A stretch of 64,000 nt of DNA from the IMG/VR virus record IMGVR_UViG_3300028832_000112, positions 41,681 through 105,680 of that record, one strand, 5' to 3'. The notes under the pieces are model-generated. The model was not told the origin of the DNA. It worked only from the letters and a program-made list of their open reading frames with translations, and did not search any database. A program made the translations under genes and the position numbers. Positions 4,817-50,759 of this stretch are shown one piece after another (the stretch's first letter is position 1; every line of letters starts with the position of its first letter). Source of the DNA: a virus (Duplodnaviria > Caudoviricetes).

Positions 4817-4845
4817 CTAAACTGATTGGAAAAGGAAGAAATTTT

Positions 4846-5661
4846 ATGGGTTTCAATATGCCTAAGACCAAAACAGTAGAACACGGCGAGATTACCTTAG
4901 AACAGCTCAATGAAATCAAGCGATGCGCAAGTGACTTGTCTTATTTCGCCAAGTACATAAAGCTCGAAAAGAATGGATATCCGATCAACTGGAGAGACTA
5001 CCAGCTTCGCGAGTTCGACATTCTCCAGAAGTACAACAACGTCATCCACAACTGGTGTAGGCAAGCTGGCAACCGATGGATCGAGGCCGCCTATGTGTTG
5101 TGGTACGTGACGTTCAACTCGTCTCGCTGCTGTGTGCTGTTGGATGTCAAGCATAGCATGGCCAAGGAACAGCTCGCGCTTATCAAGACGATGTACTTGA
5201 ACTTGCCGTGGTGGTTGAAGAAGGAAGCCGATTTCCATAAGATATACGCCACGTTCGGTTCTGGCATAGACAAATGCACCATATTCGTTGAGGCGTACGG
5301 CCTTGGTGGATTCCGTGGTAAGACGGTTAACTTGTTCATGTGTCGGAATTTTGCATTTGTCAAGGAATCCATAGCAAACGATTTCGCGGCTTCCGTATTT
5401 CCGGTACACATGTCAGGTAATCCGAAGAATCACCGCATGCTGATATCCTCTTGTCCAAACGGCAAGGGCAACTTGTTCCATCATCTGTGGAATAGTTGCA
5501 TCCAGCTGCCCAACGTGATTCAGCCGGAATCGACGTCGTTTGTCGGTACGGAAGTGACGTACAGCAAGCAAGTCAAGCCGTACGTGAAAAAGGACATGTC
5601 GAGCTTGCTTCCGCGCCACATCTACCTCGCCGAGTATGAATGTAAATTCGTGGACAGATAA
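4846..5661 (+). CDS. Terminase large subunit (T4 gp17-like) ATPase domain, catalytically degenerate, no nuclease domain
   Basis: CASDLSYFA, RDYQ, RQAG, FRGKT, FAF, SCPNG..NLFHHLW, EYECKF are colinear with gp17; Walker A GKT->GNR, Walker B DE->RN. Confidence 0.85.
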   Translation: MGFNMPKTKTVEHGEITLEQLNEIKRCASDLSYFAKYIKLEKNGYPINWRDYQLREFDILQKYNNVIHNWCRQAGNRWIEAAYVLWYVTFNSSRCCVLLDVKHSMAKEQLALIKTMYLNLPWWLKKEADFHKIYATFGSGIDKCTIFVEAYGLGGFRGKTVNLFMCRNFAFVKESIANDFAASVFPVHMSGNPKNHRMLISSCPNGKGNLFHHLWNSCIQLPNVIQPESTSFVGTEVTYSKQVKPYVKKDMSSLLPRHIYLAEYECKFVDR

Positions 5662-5667
5662 TAAACT
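5661..5667 (+). promoter_or_regulatory. Candidate late promoter ATAAACT
   Basis: Same heptamer at 7742, 10134, 18152, 22687 and 49423, each in a gene leader. Confidence 0.55.
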
Positions 5668-5694
5668 GTGGCTAAAGTCTCCTACGAGGAAACA

Positions 5695-5973
5695 ATGGCT
5701 AATATGAAATCTGTCGATGAAGTTATCGACGCCGAAATCGGCGGTTCTCCGATTTGCGAAGCCGTGAAGCAGATCGCTGGCACGTTGTTTGAGTCAATCG
5801 ATTACAACAACGCAAGTGCCGTGTACAATGCTCTTGCAGAAGGCCAGTACTTTACTGACGCGGAACTTGAGCTTGTTACCAATGGCTGGGGCTTGAACAC
5901 TGATACCTTGGACAGAATCTGCCAAGTCCGCTATGGCGGCGATGCAGACCAAGTTATTGAAGGACGTGTATGA
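5695..5973 (+). CDS. Hypothetical, possible internal head protein
   Basis: RBS GAGGA; ICEA/LFES motifs resembling prohead-protease sites. Confidence 0.6.
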   Translation: MANMKSVDEVIDAEIGGSPICEAVKQIAGTLFESIDYNNASAVYNALAEGQYFTDAELELVTNGWGLNTDTLDRICQVRYGGDADQVIEGRV

Positions 5974-6842
5974 GACCCTACCTAGCTATCAGTATCAACG
6001 GCGGCGGTGCCCTCGGCATCGGCCCTCTCGCGTTCATGGAACGTCTCGAAAGCGATGTCGGTAGAGGACTCAACGAAATCGGCGTTGCGTTTGCTGGAAC
6101 TTCTACTGGCTCCATCATCGCTGGCGGTTTCGACGAAGGATATAACGCCCATGAATTACGTAAGCTGTACCGTGACAACTTGAAGAAGATTTTCACGAAG
6201 TATTCGTGGTACAAGCGCTTGCAGCCTTCTTGCCCGACCTACGACAACTCCTACTTGAAGGAACTCCTCAAGAAGAAGTTCAAGGGAAAGGTCAGCGACT
6301 GGAAGAAGCCCATTTACATTCCGACTACGCACACGAACGGTGAAAGCGTGGAGAAGGTTTGGGACTTGGGCGATACGAAGGTCGACAAGTGGTTCGCCAT
6401 CTTGACAAGCACTGCGGCTCCTACATTCTTCGATGTTGTCGTTCAAGACGGCCAAAGTTTTTGTGACGGTGGTATGTGGGCGAACTCTCCGATTGCAGTC
6501 CTCAACGCTGGCTTGAAGCGTTCTGAGTACGTAGGCAAGCTCCGCATTCTTTCGTTCAACACTGGCATGGATACGCCGAACACGCTCAAGGGAAACCAGT
6601 CCCTCATCGGTTGGGCTACCTACCTCAAGGACGAATGGATCGCTCGCGCCGGAAAGAGCAACGACTACGAAGTCATCGCCGATCTCGGCGCAGAGAACGT
6701 GGCCATCGCCTCTCCGAAGCACTCTTCAAAGATTGCGATGGACAAGACCGACGACGACACGCTCAATAAGATCGAGAAAATCTGGACGGACTACTACGAT
6801 GCCAACCGTGAATATTTCAAGAAATTCGTGAAGTGCTACTAG
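5970..6842 (+). CDS. Patatin-like phospholipase
   Basis: GGGALG, GTSTG, TAAPTFF and DGG motifs intact. Confidence 0.9.
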   Translation: MRPYLAISINGGGALGIGPLAFMERLESDVGRGLNEIGVAFAGTSTGSIIAGGFDEGYNAHELRKLYRDNLKKIFTKYSWYKRLQPSCPTYDNSYLKELLKKKFKGKVSDWKKPIYIPTTHTNGESVEKVWDLGDTKVDKWFAILTSTAAPTFFDVVVQDGQSFCDGGMWANSPIAVLNAGLKRSEYVGKLRILSFNTGMDTPNTLKGNQSLIGWATYLKDEWIARAGKSNDYEVIADLGAENVAIASPKHSSKIAMDKTDDDTLNKIEKIWTDYYDANREYFKKFVKCY

Positions 6843-6861: not shown

Positions 6862-6901
6862 AAAAAGGGGATTTGCCAAGCAAATCCTCTTTTGCTATAT
6901 T
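6862..6901 (+). promoter_or_regulatory. Terminator fused to early promoter
   Basis: Hairpin AAAAGGGGATTTGC-CAA-GCAAATCCTCTTTT containing TTGCCA(6873)-N17-TATATT(6896). Confidence 0.75.
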
Positions 6902-7710: not shown

Positions 7711-7748
7711 AGATCGCCAGCGTCTGCTGGCGGTCTTTTTCATAAACT
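7711..7748 (+). terminator. Intrinsic terminator directly followed by ATAAACT
   Basis: GATCGCCAGC-GTCT-GCTGGCGGTC-TTTTTC-ATAAACT. Confidence 0.75.
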
Positions 7749-8056: not shown

Positions 8057-10042
8057 ATGTGGAAATTCAAAACAAAAGGAACACTCCACATGTGTAATTA
8101 TCCAGAAGAATCCTCACGTCCATTGTCCACGATGGAATGCCAGAACGCCTTTGACCAGCTCGTCTCTGAGACGGAACAGCCCAAGGCAGATGCTAACTAT
8201 TCACCCGATCCTGAACGTATTGCTGATATTACTAATCAGTACAAGCTGTTTGCAAAGACATTGGAACCGAAGAAGTCCGACGATATGACCGACAACGAGC
8301 CGCTGCGCATTGTCGAGCGCAAGCCTACCGCCGATCCCCACTTCGACGAGATCAAGTTCAACCGTGAACCGACATTTGCCGAAGTGAAGCAGATGTGCAG
8401 TGACGAAGGCATGTCTATCGCAGACGAGACGATTCCTACTCTCACCAAGGAAACAATCGAAAAGGCTACAGAAGCGTTTGACGACGTGCCGACGGACGAA
8501 GCTGTGGACGTAGATCTGGACGAAGCTCCGGAAGAAGTCAACGAAGCTTCGAGCACCGAGTTCTTGGAAGAAGATGCGCCGGACGAAGGCGAAGAAGAAC
8601 CCAATCCGGTCAAGGAAGCTTTCGCGAAGGTCGCCAAGGAAGTCGACCAGCAGCTGAAGGACGAATGCGAAGGCAACTGCATCAAGTGCGACAACCATTG
8701 CCACGACAAGGTTGATGTGAAGGTGCCGTCCGAAAACGACAAGTTCAGAGCGTCATGCGCGATTGAGTTCTTGCACAAAAAAGAAATTGGCCAAGACAAT
8801 GTAGCTGACCACTTGGACGTTATTGACGATATCTATACGACGCTTACCGAAACACAGCTCAAGCTGGTAACGGATGAAGCTCCTTGGCTTACGGCGGTGT
8901 TCCAAGACGCCGATATTCGCAAGGCGGAACGCGAGAGCGCGGCGAGAAAAGAAGCCGAACTCGAAGCTGCCGATGAAAAGTCCAAGGCTCAAGCCGAACA
9001 GCTTACTAGCAAGCTCGAAGGAAAGACTGGCAACTGGGAAGCTGACGCACAGAAGGCCCAGTACGAGGCATGGACTGACCTAGTGAAGAAGTGGCCGACC
9101 TTGTCGAAGGATGTGCAAGACGTTCTTGAACGCATCCCTGGGTTCACCGCATTCCGAAACTACACGCAGTCCCAGATGAATTCTGAAGCATTCAAGCAGA
9201 AGATCGACTACGATCCGGAACAGACCGTGAAGGAAATGGCCAGAGCCCACGAGCTGGGAAACATTTCTGCCGCAGACGCCGCGAAGTTCATGGATGAACC
9301 AGACATGATCAGCAAGTTCGCTATGGGCAACAGTCCAGAATTCGACCAGCTGAACAAGGAACGCAACGAGTTCAGTACGAACAACTTCTCGAAGGCGACC
9401 AACATGTTCGAGAAGCTTCAGAATGACGGACATATTCCGCCGACGAACAAGGGTGCCGACCCTAGTCTGTTCTCAAATCAGACGTACCGCCAGTTCTGGA
9501 AGAATGCGCCTGAAGCTGAGCTCGGCAATACTCTTATCTTCGGCCCGACGCCTTGCATGTTCGATACGGTCAAGGACGGTAACGGTTTCGGAAAGGGTGA
9601 CTGCACGGTTGGCGATATCTTTGAACAAGAATACGCTCGCTCCAGGAAGGTTAATGCTAGTCATCCGATCGTCCAGCCGAAGAAGCCGCTGACCCCGGAA
9701 GAGTCCTTGGCGAACCTCATGACGGACTTGCCGAAGACGATGGTGAACAAGATTCTCGCCATTCCGAGTGACGACTGGAAGTTCAAGTTTGACGGTGAGG
9801 CGTTTGAACTTTGTTACAATGTCGCTTCTCGTACAATCCGCTTGTCGATGTTCAAGAAGAAGCTGGTGGACAGCGACCACTTGGGTAGCGTGTTCTCGTT
9901 GAGCTTCGTCAACGATGGCCCCGGCAGCGTTCAGTACAACCGTTCTTTCAACGCATTGAAGGATATCTCCGCCGCTGGCCCCAACGCAAAGCGTCTTTAC
10001 CAGTGGTTCGGTAAGATAATTGCAACATTCTTCAGCAAATAA
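8057..10042 (+). CDS. Large acidic hypothetical protein
   Basis: 661-aa ORF; acidic linker and CxxxCxxCxxHCH cluster; start may be at 8090. Confidence 0.8.
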   Translation: MWKFKTKGTLHMCNYPEESSRPLSTMECQNAFDQLVSETEQPKADANYSPDPERIADITNQYKLFAKTLEPKKSDDMTDNEPLRIVERKPTADPHFDEIKFNREPTFAEVKQMCSDEGMSIADETIPTLTKETIEKATEAFDDVPTDEAVDVDLDEAPEEVNEASSTEFLEEDAPDEGEEEPNPVKEAFAKVAKEVDQQLKDECEGNCIKCDNHCHDKVDVKVPSENDKFRASCAIEFLHKKEIGQDNVADHLDVIDDIYTTLTETQLKLVTDEAPWLTAVFQDADIRKAERESAARKEAELEAADEKSKAQAEQLTSKLEGKTGNWEADAQKAQYEAWTDLVKKWPTLSKDVQDVLERIPGFTAFRNYTQSQMNSEAFKQKIDYDPEQTVKEMARAHELGNISAADAAKFMDEPDMISKFAMGNSPEFDQLNKERNEFSTNNFSKATNMFEKLQNDGHIPPTNKGADPSLFSNQTYRQFWKNAPEAELGNTLIFGPTPCMFDTVKDGNGFGKGDCTVGDIFEQEYARSRKVNASHPIVQPKKPLTPEESLANLMTDLPKTMVNKILAIPSDDWKFKFDGEAFELCYNVASRTIRLSMFKKKLVDSDHLGSVFSLSFVNDGPGSVQYNRSFNALKDISAAGPNAKRLYQWFGKIIATFFSK

Positions 10043-10097: not shown

Positions 10098-10140
10098 CGG
10101 CCACCGAGAGAAATCTTGGTGGCCGCTTTTTTGATAAACT
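10098..10140 (+). terminator. Intrinsic terminator directly followed by ATAAACT
   Basis: CGGCCACCGAGA-GAAA-TCTTGGTGGCCG-CTTTTTTG-ATAAACT. Confidence 0.8.
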
Positions 10141-15254: not shown

Positions 15255-15681
15255 AATGAACTGGTACGAGGTGGGCAAGGAAACGCCTCGTGAACATATC
15301 CTACTGTTTCTTGTTACCGAAGATGAGCCAGAAACTCTCTACACTGGTGTCTATACTGAAGGCGGGTTCCGTCTTAGTGGGCAACAGTGTGCGGTCTTGC
15401 CGCTTGCTGGCACGAAGTTCACGCACTTTGCCTATGTGAATAGCAATATGCTGCCGAAGAACTGCAAGGAAGGCTGCGAAGGCAGCGGTTGGCACGTCAC
15501 CAAGGACGATGTTCCTGAGAACGACGAGCCAGTCGCCATCTATCCAAGCTTCCAAGGCCATCAGTTCGCCGTATGGAACAAGCACGAGCAGTGCTGGGAT
15601 GACGAGTCTGGCGACGACTACCTTTGCAAGAAAGACGAAGTCGCCAAGTGGTATCCAATCAACTGGGGAGGAGTCCTATGA
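15232..15681 (+). CDS. DUF551-like tandem-domain phage protein
   Basis: Two W.....P...THF/KW.P units. Confidence 0.6.
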   Translation: MSLRCQAEMNWYEVGKETPREHILLFLVTEDEPETLYTGVYTEGGFRLSGQQCAVLPLAGTKFTHFAYVNSNMLPKNCKEGCEGSGWHVTKDDVPENDEPVAIYPSFQGHQFAVWNKHEQCWDDESGDDYLCKKDEVAKWYPINWGGVL

Positions 15682-16028
15682 TGTTTTTGTCTGGATTGGC
15701 CGGGTTCGCCTTGGCTTGGATTATCGTCGGTATAGTGCATGCGGTAAAGACTCGCAAGAGTAAGAAACGGTACGAGTGGCTTGCCGAGGTCGACGGCGTT
15801 ACGTTCGTGATCGATACGTATGTGGTTGAATTGCTGTCCAAGGGTACTTTCGACGACTACTGCGACCGCCGCATCATCTTGAACAACATGCTGCAGTATT
15901 GCTATGGCATGATGGATGGCGGATGGAAGTCCGAGCATAAGGAAAAGGCGGCTCGTTGTGGCATAACCGTCGATACGGAGAACGAATCGCTCTCGTTCAC
16001 GCTTTCGCCGTTGAATTTGTCTGAATAA
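15678..16028 (+). CDS. Hypothetical membrane-anchored protein
   Basis: RBS GGAGGAG; N-terminal TM segment. Confidence 0.65.
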   Translation: MMFLSGLAGFALAWIIVGIVHAVKTRKSKKRYEWLAEVDGVTFVIDTYVVELLSKGTFDDYCDRRIILNNMLQYCYGMMDGGWKSEHKEKAARCGITVDTENESLSFTLSPLNLSE

Positions 16029-16047
16029 TATTTCGTCTCATAATAGG

Positions 16048-16076
16048 AAAGGGCCGGACAATGTCCGACCCTTTTT
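16048..16076. terminator. Terminator between convergent operons
   Basis: AAAGGGCCGGACA-A-TGTCCGACCCTTTTT. Confidence 0.7.
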
Positions 16077-16094
16077 GTTTGATTCAAGAAGAAC

Positions 16095-16853
16095 TTACTT
16101 GAGATAACTCGACAAGAACTCGTTGTGTTCTTGTTCGATCTTGATGGTTTCGTTGTTCTGGTCGATCATCTTCTGGATTTCTTCCTTGTCGTATTCGAGG
16201 AAGGATTCTTCGATGAAGCGAGCAATAAAGCGGTCGATGGCGTCGCCGTCGAAATCTTCGATCTTGTCGGCAGTGAGAACCAGAAGTCCGTCGCAGATGT
16301 CCAAGTTCGTCGGATAGATGTCGATCGAGTAGACGAACTTGCGCATGTACTCGTTGTAGATAAGCGATTCGTACAACGATACCTTGTTGTAGTCTTTGGA
16401 CATGTAGTCACCGAGCTTGGGGCTGCGTACGCAAAGTTCGGTCTCGTTGCTGTAGACCTTGTCGGAGAACCCGGCTTCCGGCTTGACGATGAACGGCATC
16501 TTCATGAAGTAGTTGGTGCCCTTGACTGGACGGAATCCGCCCTTGTTGTAGATGGACTGTCTGGTCTGCTCGTAGCATTCTTGCGTGTGCTTGCGCTTGG
16601 CGTCCATTTCTTCCTTCAGCTTGCCTTCCTTAGCCAGTTCGATCTTGTGTTCGATGTCGTTCACGATTTTGATCATTTCGGCCTCGTACTTGGCCTTCCA
16701 TGTCTTCTCGCGCCAGAGGAAAAAGACCTCGTAAAGTTCGGAACAGACAGTGGAACAGCGGATAGCCGTGTCCATTCCCCATTGTCCGTCGGCGGCTCGT
16801 TCGTTGCACCATGCGCTGAACTGCTTGAAGGTCATTGATTCGTATTTGCTCAT
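16095..16853 (-). CDS. Hypothetical protein
   Basis: MTFKQFSAWCNERAADGQWG phage-type N-terminus. Confidence 0.75.
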   Translation of the reverse strand: MSKYESMTFKQFSAWCNERAADGQWGMDTAIRCSTVCSELYEVFFLWREKTWKAKYEAEMIKIVNDIEHKIELAKEGKLKEEMDAKRKHTQECYEQTRQSIYNKGGFRPVKGTNYFMKMPFIVKPEAGFSDKVYSNETELCVRSPKLGDYMSKDYNKVSLYESLIYNEYMRKFVYSIDIYPTNLDICDGLLVLTADKIEDFDGDAIDRFIARFIEESFLEYDKEEIQKMIDQNNETIKIEQEHNEFLSSYLK

Positions 16854-22626: not shown

Positions 22627-22693
22627 AAAGACAAGCCGCTGGTTGACAGTCGGCTTGTTTTTTGTTATATTTCCCTTACAAAAACGATAAACT
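22627..22693 (+). promoter_or_regulatory. Terminator fused to early promoter, followed by ATAAACT
   Basis: ACAAGCCG..CGGCTTGT hairpin carries TTGACA(22643)-N17-TATATT(22666); ATAAACT at 22687. Confidence 0.75.
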
Positions 22694-49310: not shown

Positions 49311-50759
49311 GCGGTCGCAAGCTCACACCCTTTAGGGTGTGGGTAAGACCCGCAGTAACAAATGTAAGAAATAAATAACATTAGAAAGCCTCACAATTAT
49401 TGTATATTTGAGTTAAGATACTATAAACTTTAATTGAAGTCAAGAAATTTAACATGGAAGCGATAAGAAGCGAAGATACGAAGGCTAAGATACGGGCGAG
49501 CATGTCCGCAACGAAGGCCAGACGGCAGACACAAGTCTGCCGAGTATTCGAGCTTAAAGTTTCCATACGGCACAACCCGAAATCGGTGTTCGATAAGATG
49601 TCCCAATGCTTCAAGGAAGCGAAATGGGTAATTAACGACATGCTGTCGCTATCCAAGGATAATCCCGACAACAGTATGTTCGACTACAAGTACACCGACC
49701 ATAAGGATGTTGTTCATTATGACAAGGACAAGAATGCGGTCACGTCGTCAATCACCTTGCCTTCCGTCCTCCATCGAGCGACAGTTGCCCAGAAGAAGAC
49801 CGACATAGTGAACTTGGCCAAGGCAAAGTCACATGGCCGAAAGATTGGCGCATTGAAGTTCAAGCGACAAGTGGACTGCATACCCATTATCACTGGTTTC
49901 ACACAGATTATTGATGGTTGTCGTATAACTATTCCTGGGTTCAAGAAAATCCGTGTAAACGGGTTAAACCAGCTTCACCAGTTCGAAACATTTGAACTAG
50001 CCGATGCCAAGCTGGTTCGCAAGGCATCTGGCTATTATGTAAAGATTAGCATAATGCTTCCGAAATCATCAAGGAAACCTACCAACCGAGAGGTTGGTCT
50101 TGATTTCGGAATAAAGGATTCCATAACGACATCAAACGGCGACAAGTACAACTGCAAAGTGCAAGAATCGGAACACCTGAAGTACCTTTCAAAAATGTTG
50201 AACAGGCACAAGACAGAGAAGGGTTCCAAGCGGCGTTGGAGATGTAAGTGTCAACTGGCTAGGGAATATGAACATTTGGCAAATATACGAAAGGATATTG
50301 CCAACAAGATATACAACAGGCTAGTAACCGATTATGATGTTATCTACTTCCAAGATGAGCAGATTAAGAACTGGCAGAAAGGGTTGTTCGGCAAGTCCGT
50401 ACAGTCTTCCTGTCTAGGTTCGTTGAAACAACGACTTGTCGCTCTCGAAGCGAGTGGACGTAGTTTCAAAATCTCAAAGTGGGAACCTACCACCAAGCTA
50501 TGTCCGATGTGTGGTTGCATAAACCACCCGACACTTGCAGACCGAATCTACAAGTGCGATTGCGGATATACGATGGACAGGGACATCCATTCTGCTCGCG
50601 TAGTCTTGATGATTGGCTCGTCTAAAAGAGCCGAGTGCATGGAACATGCCTCCGCTGAGGTAGCCGCCTCTATGCCTCCCAGTTCTACTGGGTTAGCACA
50701 AGTGGCTCCGTCGAAGCGAAAACTCGAAGCTCACAGCCTTTAGGCTGTGGGTAGTTCAC
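49305..50759 (+). mobile_element. IS200/IS605-family (IS1341-like) non-autonomous element
   Basis: TTGAC target 5' of left end; subterminal hairpins CTCACACCC-TTTA-GGGTGTGGG and CTCACAGCC-TTTA-GGCTGTGGG; right end GTAGTTCAC. Confidence 0.88.
49454..50743 (+). CDS. tnpB: RNA-guided endonuclease TnpB
   Basis: GLDFG, YFQDE, DRDIHSA RuvC motifs; CPMC..CDC Zn ribbon. Confidence 0.9.
   Translation: MEAIRSEDTKAKIRASMSATKARRQTQVCRVFELKVSIRHNPKSVFDKMSQCFKEAKWVINDMLSLSKDNPDNSMFDYKYTDHKDVVHYDKDKNAVTSSITLPSVLHRATVAQKKTDIVNLAKAKSHGRKIGALKFKRQVDCIPIITGFTQIIDGCRITIPGFKKIRVNGLNQLHQFETFELADAKLVRKASGYYVKISIMLPKSSRKPTNREVGLDFGIKDSITTSNGDKYNCKVQESEHLKYLSKMLNRHKTEKGSKRRWRCKCQLAREYEHLANIRKDIANKIYNRLVTDYDVIYFQDEQIKNWQKGLFGKSVQSSCLGSLKQRLVALEASGRSFKISKWEPTTKLCPMCGCINHPTLADRIYKCDCGYTMDRDIHSARVVLMIGSSKRAECMEHASAEVAASMPPSSTGLAQVAPSKRKLEAHSL

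Follow-up and report, generated by a model that had tools for sequence, protein, structure and literature searches.

A Predicted Catalytically Dead, Nuclease-Less Paralog of the Terminase ATPase Domain Maintained in a Group of Very Large Rumen Phages

A gene at positions 4846–5661 (+ strand) of the window, the 64,000-nucleotide stretch of phage DNA analyzed here (bases 41681–105680 of a 105,680-bp IMG/VR record that CheckV estimates to be 26% complete), encodes a protein termed P0001. On the grounds of homology, a structural model, and selection, P0001 is very probably a catalytically dead, selectively maintained paralog of the ATPase domain of the terminase large subunit (TerL) that acts by binding. 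No other protein of tailed phages is as conserved as TerL, which is also a main target of bacterial immunity based on pattern recognition. Resembling the ATPase domain of TerL, P0001 would act through binding and not through catalysis, and may engage or evade host sensors of that domain (Avs1–3 or Upx-type); alternatively, it may interfere with the packaging machinery of competing phages. P0001 is probably not a core part of the packaging apparatus of its own phage.

Domain Structure and Active Site of P0001

The gene is a stop-free ORF of 271 codons, and AAGGAAG is located 7–8 nt 5′ of its ATG; both the ATG and AAGGAAG are kept in an alignment of six loci. In a phmmer search against the PDB, P0001 matches the ATPase domain of T4 gp17 (2o0h, E 9e-11), with residues 15–228 aligned to chain residues 126–336, which covers the whole domain. 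CRQAGNR (residues 71–77) is aligned under SRQLGKT of gp17, replacing the Lys-Thr of Walker A by Asn-Arg, and FMCRN (residues 164–168) corresponds to IYIDE of Walker B (IYIED in 2o0h, a mutant chain in which Walker B ends in ED instead of DE), replacing Asp-Glu by Arg-Asn. The C-motif IITTTPNG is represented by ISSCPNG, with TTT changed to SSC (residues 201–203). In gp17, the three aligned stretches are the Walker A motif, the Walker B motif together with its catalytic glutamate, and the C-motif responsible for coupling. P0001 retains the adenine-binding motif WRDYQ (residues 49–53) and the arginine and glycine of the P-loop.

The protein ends in EYECKFVDR, such that the stop follows three residues beyond EYECKF, whereas in full-length relatives the EYEC.F motif is followed by the nuclease domain. 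The sequence-only reading had described an intact ORF with a ribosome-binding site, which follows the gp17 ATPase domain throughout, carries GNR for GKT and RN for DE, and stops at EYECKF before the nuclease domain; each of these points is borne out by the alignments. As the Walker A and B residues are replaced and the nuclease domain is missing, P0001 cannot be a packaging motor or a DNA cutter. Judged from its residues, the protein is thus shown to be unable to hydrolyze ATP in the canonical manner or to cut DNA. P0001 is therefore like the gp17 ATPase domain (Terminase_6N; 2o0h, 3cpe) in homology over the whole domain and in its boundary, but unlike gp17 in its three altered motifs, in the lack of a nuclease domain, and in being encoded in an accessory region by a gene that is optional among relatives.

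Family-level searches lead to the same relationship. PHROG families of the terminase large subunit match P0001 with E-values of 1e-17, 4e-16, and 1e-05. No Pfam family matches up to E 1, and thus Terminase_6N does not exceed its gathering score, whereas TerLs of kin phages (see below) score 65–72 bits in Pfam. In tblastn searches with P0001, 2089 phage records were matched, every one at less than 60% identity; a large terminase is annotated in 38 of the 40 matches listed, and each T4-like record is matched at a single place, which is gp17. By these sequence comparisons, the resemblance to the gp17 ATPase domain is far beyond chance.

An AlphaFold2 model of P0001, built on 109 sequences, has a pLDDT of 91.8 and a pTM of 0.90. 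Its best PDB matches are four gp17 entries (TM 0.81, rmsd 2.9–3.2 Å), including 2o0h (Foldseek E 2e-15, TM 0.81), and the viral structures that match it best are all terminases. Because the input alignment consists mostly of real terminases, the model indicates that the fold is kept and says little about the pocket. Retention of a gp17-like ATPase fold is predicted with confidence.

Distribution, Alleles, and Selection

The 90%-identity cluster of P0001 contains 64 sequences (from JGI, ENA, NCBI, and Logan) on contigs that reach 436,655 and 468,552 bp. Further copies of the family are located on short contigs binned with MAGs of ruminal Prevotella and Fibrobacter, and sample names and IMG sets indicate cattle, sheep, and other ruminants. 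GenBank phages contain no DNA similar to this locus. Peptide-pattern scans of IMG/VR with P0001 or its alignment found no relatives, and the IMG/VR relatives discussed here were reached solely via the adjacent patatin gene. These data show that the P0001 family occurs in a single group of T4-like rumen phages of very large size and nowhere else.

Members with 74–85% identity to P0001 all have GNR in Walker A and CR[NH] in Walker B. The allele P0006 (48% identity) has GKR and CHD, keeping the Walker A lysine and carrying HD for DE, and in an allele from the IMG/VR record G018 (42% identity) the two motifs read CKHSGRRL and CHDF. None of the three divergent alleles (GNR/RN, GKR/HD, and GRR/HD) thus retains both Walker motifs intact. 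The expectation that the substitutions would be conserved in homologs holds in this sense, but not residue by residue, as P0006 retains the lysine. The change of Thr to Arg in Walker A and the presence of a basic residue for the Walker B Asp in all alleles suggest that the site died once, in the family ancestor.

All copies of the family that were seen have an intact frame, the terminal stop is conserved across alleles, and the boundary between the ATPase and nuclease domains is the same even in alleles sharing just 42–48% identity. By the Nei–Gojobori method, dN/dS between the window gene and the copy at locus L012 is 0.10 at an unsaturated dS of 0.59. Deeper pairs in the GNR allele group give 0.05–0.07, ratios that are rough because dS is saturated, and five flanking enzymes give 0.05–0.26. 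As far as substitution patterns tell, the P0001 family is under purifying selection, with no decay. The proposal of a maintained pseudo-enzyme is therefore strengthened: no member has an intact site, the ratios do not exceed those of flanking enzymes, the fold is kept, and the signature of neutral decay is absent from the homolog pairs.

Between alleles, the pseudo-terminase shares 42–48% identity, compared with 76–80% for the adjacent patatin and 53–74% for the remaining neighbors. In the same genome pairs, its dS also lies above that of the flanks (0.59 vs. 0.23–0.50, and 2.5 vs. 0.7–1.05), an excess that hints at allele exchange or an older polymorphism. Slow change within alleles, big jumps between them, and presence or absence among kin together resemble the pattern of a conflict locus, which does not prove such a role.

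Relationship to the Canonical TerL of the Lineage

Synteny with the window is seen in the relative G017 (355,392 bp, 93% complete), with identities of 63% for ClpP, 60% for NUDIX, 72% for patatin, 57% for dUTPase, and 75% for orf96. Its NUDIX–patatin interval contains only a 186-residue homolog of the small ORF (described below), and no terminase-like gene. A canonical TerL of 560 residues is encoded about 53 kb away and has the motifs SRQVGKST, LDEF, and STP. This protein matches gp17 with E 3e-56 (residues 3–478 to 87–548), that is, from the ATPase domain through the nuclease domain. The complete genome G027 (422,150 bp) encodes a TerL of the same type (554 residues). Because G017 lacks the copy but has a canonical TerL, P0001 is regarded as an optional accessory paralog of the TerL type of its lineage.

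The P0001 family and these kin TerLs (G017, G027; representative P0009) have the MPFN N-terminus in common, share 30–40% identity, and fall into one clade; the kin TerLs differ in their intact motifs and in having a nuclease domain, the gp17 match extending to residue 548. A family profile matches them with E 1e-38 to 1e-43, compared with about 1e-26 for the TerL of another group of rumen megaphages. In a tree that includes the kin TerLs, the clade that unites them with the P0001 family has an SH-aLRT of 89 and also takes in two further dead families, with a stem of 1.7 substitutions per site leading to the P0001 family; trees lacking the kin TerLs do not resolve its placement. From this pattern we infer that a TerL of the lineage's own type was duplicated and that the copy, P0001, then evolved fast.

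The P0170-type TerL family, which belongs to other rumen megaphages, was considered as the TerL of the lineage and was rejected, as it does not group with the P0001 family in the tree. None of 16 searched IMG/VR genomes with a P0170-type TerL has a second match to the family profile, and 14 of these lack both the patatin and the AAA protein of this contig.

On the 26%-complete, 105.7-kb contig itself, searches with phrog_2, PF03237, PF17289, and the kin TerL (G017) found no second terminase ATPase or nuclease domain. The kin TerL matches the contig with residues 14–280 alone, at P0001 itself, and at least 46 kb separate the P0001 gene from any terminase gene on its own contig. We infer that the phage has a canonical TerL in the unsequenced three quarters of its genome.

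Organization of the P0001 Locus

The neighbors of P0001 are genes for guanylate kinase, a ClpP-like protease, NUDIX (on the opposite strand), a small ORF, a patatin-like phospholipase, and dUTPase; the initial placement of the gene among accessory genes is correct because of the nature of these neighbors. The gene itself stands between the NUDIX gene and the pair formed by the small ORF and the patatin gene. Tail-fiber genes are located at the left end of the contig.

The leader CTAAACTGATTGGAAAAGGAAGAAATTTT (4817–4845, +), which holds the ribosome-binding site and CTAAACT, is conserved in the six-locus alignment and occurs once in the window. CTAAACT, 29 nt before the ATG, is a one-mismatch copy of the promoter-like motif ATAAACT. 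RNA structure in the leader is not significant (z −0.86), and exact copies of the T4 late promoter (TATAAATA) show no enrichment. As the leader motif resembles that before tail-fiber genes, expression of P0001 may be late, alongside packaging.

Across the contig, which is 94% coding, 11 of 14 ATAAACT copies precede the start of a gene on the same strand by no more than 70 nt, in many cases directly behind a terminator, and this share is the highest among the same-letter permutations seen at least five times. Copies are present at 5661–5667, 7741–7747, 10133–10139, 22686–22692, and 49422–49428 of the window, and at 9031–9037 and 14394–14400 of L009; they precede tail-fiber genes and the small ORF/patatin pair. 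From its positions, the heptamer behaves like a phage promoter-like element.

Downstream of P0001, a small acidic ORF is located at 5695–5973 (+), with 92 residues from the ATG at 5695 (the ORF list starts it at a GTG at 5668). No family matched this ORF. Its architecture varies from 50 to 246 residues, and a core of about 30 residues (IGGSPICE.VKQIA..LFES) is kept; other versions are located at L077:5432–5992, L004:4105–4845, and L005:912–1301. The start of the patatin-like phospholipase gene (5970–6842, +; Pfam PF01734, E 3e-15) overlaps the stop of the small ORF. The nucleophile elbow of the encoded protein reads GTSTG, and the protein is similar to phospholipases that serve as CBASS effectors (PADLOC phospholipase effector, E 2e-36). 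Homologs with 50–76% identity are present on 21 IMG/VR phage contigs, including complete genomes of 416–422 kb. A sequence scan found a terminator-like hairpin of 14 pairs followed by a T-run 3′ of the patatin gene (6863–6893, +), which likely ends a transcription unit comprising the pseudo-terminase, small ORF, and patatin genes. A promoter-like sequence, TTGCCA-17-TATATT, overlaps this hairpin.

Other Dead Copies of the TerL ATPase Domain

Recurrence was surveyed in the 150 best representatives at 50% identity, most of which are full-length TerLs with intact motifs. Seven are short proteins (264–327 residues) in which the Walker A lysine is lost, usually together with the catalytic glutamate. 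P0036 sits between a 320-residue gene product with a ribbon-helix-helix (RHH) domain and a dead TerL ATPase domain, and a live 563-residue TerL; P0145 is encoded directly upstream of a live TerL, and P0127 two genes upstream of an intein-bearing TerL and a sheath gene. The P0036 arrangement is found on a T4-like phage contig, where three terminase-ATPase genes stand in tandem (L006:8057–11512): the RHH fusion, with the dead site SRQIGLSS and IDLF; a 270-residue dead copy (NEVGIS, ISS); and the live TerL. Going by its domains, the RHH fusion could be a TerS-like DNA-recognition subunit built from a TerL fold.

In kin megaphages, ORFs of 357–475 residues have YRQSG[YF][ST]T for Walker A (L112:1465–2802, L110:1441–2823, L111, and L107; genomes G017, G021, G023, and G019), and G027 encodes a 265-residue dead TerL-like protein with PRQSGSTL and LDDF (L114:1339–2136). 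With these two additional dead families in kin genomes, a single genome can hold several dead copies beside TerL.

The P0001 family shares with P0036/P0145, P0076/P0127, the 265-residue protein of G027, and the YRQSG ORFs an ATPase-only design and loss of the Walker A lysine, the catalytic glutamate, or both. The dead groups and the P0001 family are separate on trees, which indicates that such copies originated independently three times or more among large T4-like phages. This recurrence suggests that the TerL fold has been re-used for a non-motor job. Unlike several of the dead copies, which are encoded directly upstream of terL, the P0001 family is far from terL and beside the patatin gene. 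The adjacency of those other copies to terL, and the RHH fusion of one of them, suggest that their families function in packaging.

Terminase Sensors and the Possible Roles of P0001

EcAvs2 binds the ATPase domain of terminase in a pocket that makes further contacts with the ATP and Mg shell carried by the terminase itself. SeAvs3 senses residues of the terminase active site together with bound ATP, and the ATPase domain alone suffices to activate Upx (PMC13601566). Toxicity on co-expression with EcAvs2 is found for T4 vs.8, a free-standing TerL-like ATPase whose Walker motifs are intact, so that proteins of this kind are able to occupy the pocket of a terminase sensor (PMC13601566). Proteins of the shape of P0001 are thus visible to terminase sensors, and the binding of the ATPase domain by Avs2 and Upx, together with the triggering of EcAvs2 by vs.8, makes a link between P0001 and these sensors plausible.

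Like vs.8, P0001 is a free-standing, nuclease-less, TerL-ATPase-like accessory protein encoded away from terL. Unlike in P0001, both Walker A (GGRQSGKS) and Walker B (IIDE) are preserved in vs.8, in agreement with PMC13601566, and vs.8 is shorter, consisting of the core subdomain only. Comparison of the P0001 family with vs.8 gave no specific similarity (hhalign probability 0.1), and by sequence P0001 is best described as a dead counterpart of vs.8, not an ortholog. No PADLOC defense-system model matches P0001. Neither catalytically dead terminase paralogs nor a decoy of terminase sensors were found described in the literature, and a survey of jumbo phages mentions no dead terminase paralogs (PMC7824862). 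The nearest described protein therefore appears to be vs.8, and a dead, selected variant of the stand-alone TerL ATPase fold appears to be new.

The substitutions in P0001 take away the very features that two sensors, Avs2 and Avs3, read. Loss of the ATP site would fit escape from sensing, with an ATP-blind and hence invisible protein, equally as well as it would fit a non-activating blocker or decoy. It would also weaken binding of P0001 to Avs2 and Avs3. In addition, since binding equals activation for the known Avs sensors, a mimic could trigger immunity rather than block it. A conflict role of some kind for P0001 is given about even chances, and a specific function as a blocker or decoy of terminase sensors is considered doubtful. 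Also unlikely is the broader proposal that ATP-blind versions of the packaging ATPase domain have evolved time and again in large phages to counter terminase-sensing immunity (Avs1–3, Upx), with the P0001 family as one such shield. In that case, the copy would occupy or distract the sensor without presenting an active site that bears Mg-ATP, shielding the real TerL during packaging, and alleles of the P0001 family would be swapped in an arms race.

A conflict role is preferred over control of packaging because the gene is optional, far from terL, and fast-diverging. Modulation of packaging would mean that the dead domain co-assembles or competes with the real TerL on the portal, small terminase, or DNA, and thereby tunes or times packaging by its own phage or serves as a TerS-like adaptor. 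P0001 keeps the entire ATPase domain, including subdomain II; independently derived dead copies are encoded directly upstream of terL elsewhere (L006, L075, and L073), one of them with an N-terminal RHH domain; the leader carries a near-copy of the ATAAACT motif that also precedes tail-fiber genes; and T4 motors are reported to tolerate inactive subunits (PMC8589836). However, the close and 93%-complete G017 packages with a canonical TerL and has no such copy, no terminase gene is present within 46 kb of the P0001 gene on the contig, and P0001 outpaces its neighbors between alleles, which is unusual for a core morphogenesis subunit. On balance, a modulator of packaging is possible but rather unlikely. 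A role as partner or regulator of the small ORF and patatin, in a three-gene functional cassette, is improbable. It would account for three same-strand genes with short or overlapping junctions, followed by a terminator-like hairpin; for the position of the gene immediately upstream of the small ORF, the patatin, or both in every locus that reaches past its 3′ end (the short contig L004 reaches the small-ORF homolog only); and for the resemblance of the patatin to CBASS effectors. Yet the pseudo-terminase is present in only one of the 19 searched among the 21 patatin-bearing IMG/VR phage contigs, G017 has the small ORF and patatin only, and G018 has the pseudo-terminase and patatin without the small ORF. 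An obligatory cassette with patatin is ruled out because the three genes vary independently, and the presence of patatin in many kin phages that lack the pseudo-terminase indicates that the link is positional.

Loss of every catalytic motif and of the nuclease domain, together with absence from some relatives, is what a functionless relic of a duplicated or captured terminase gene would look like on its way to being lost. This explanation is very improbable, since it is contradicted by the selection analysis, with dN/dS equal to or below that of flanking enzymes; no copy seen has a broken frame, conservation extends to the start, the ribosome-binding site, and the leader, and the domain boundary is the same across alleles that are 42–48% identical. 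Still less credible is P0001 as the only terminase ATPase of the phage, with a non-canonical active site and a separately encoded nuclease. The 105.7-kb contig has no second terminase, as this would predict, but it is only 26% complete and is also without a nuclease domain; Lys and Thr of Walker A, Asp of Walker B, and the catalytic Glu have each been substituted; a full-length TerL of canonical type is encoded by syntenic relatives; and a TerL with both domains is reported as universal in jumbo-phage surveys (PMC7824862).

If the preferred conflict role is correct and the job of P0001 is to manage terminase sensors or rival packaging machines, the family would represent a new class of counter-defense factors or inter-phage weapons. 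A role toward sensors would in particular provide a handle on how Avs and Upx distinguish real terminase from look-alikes. If the job is instead control of packaging, the family would represent a new type of subunit for a motor that has been studied over decades. The P0001 family is a small soluble domain for which assays are known, and is hence easily testable.

Mobile Genes, Inteins, and Interrupted Terminase Genes

In one relative (locus L003), an HNH endonuclease gene (RRXRR plus HNH; 8282–9568, −) is inserted between the NUDIX and pseudo-terminase genes, and a TnpB-like gene (15380–16483, +) is located 4.5 kb downstream. By gene content, the pseudo-terminase region appears to be a landing site for mobile genes.

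Five full-length TerLs (P0008, P0011, P0015, P0018, and P0044) have an intein exactly at the conserved EYE|C motif, only a few residues away from where the dead copies stop, a proximity that prompted a reading of P0001 as an intein remnant. A split gene or intein remnant is ruled out because the active-site residues are replaced and the terminal stop is conserved across alleles.

In the complete genome G033 (415,750 bp), the sole terminase-like matches are two short ORFs with live Walker motifs, of 306 residues (L106:1468–2388) and 258 residues (L109:1513–2289). No long TerL frame was found in this genome, and its terL may be split or interrupted.
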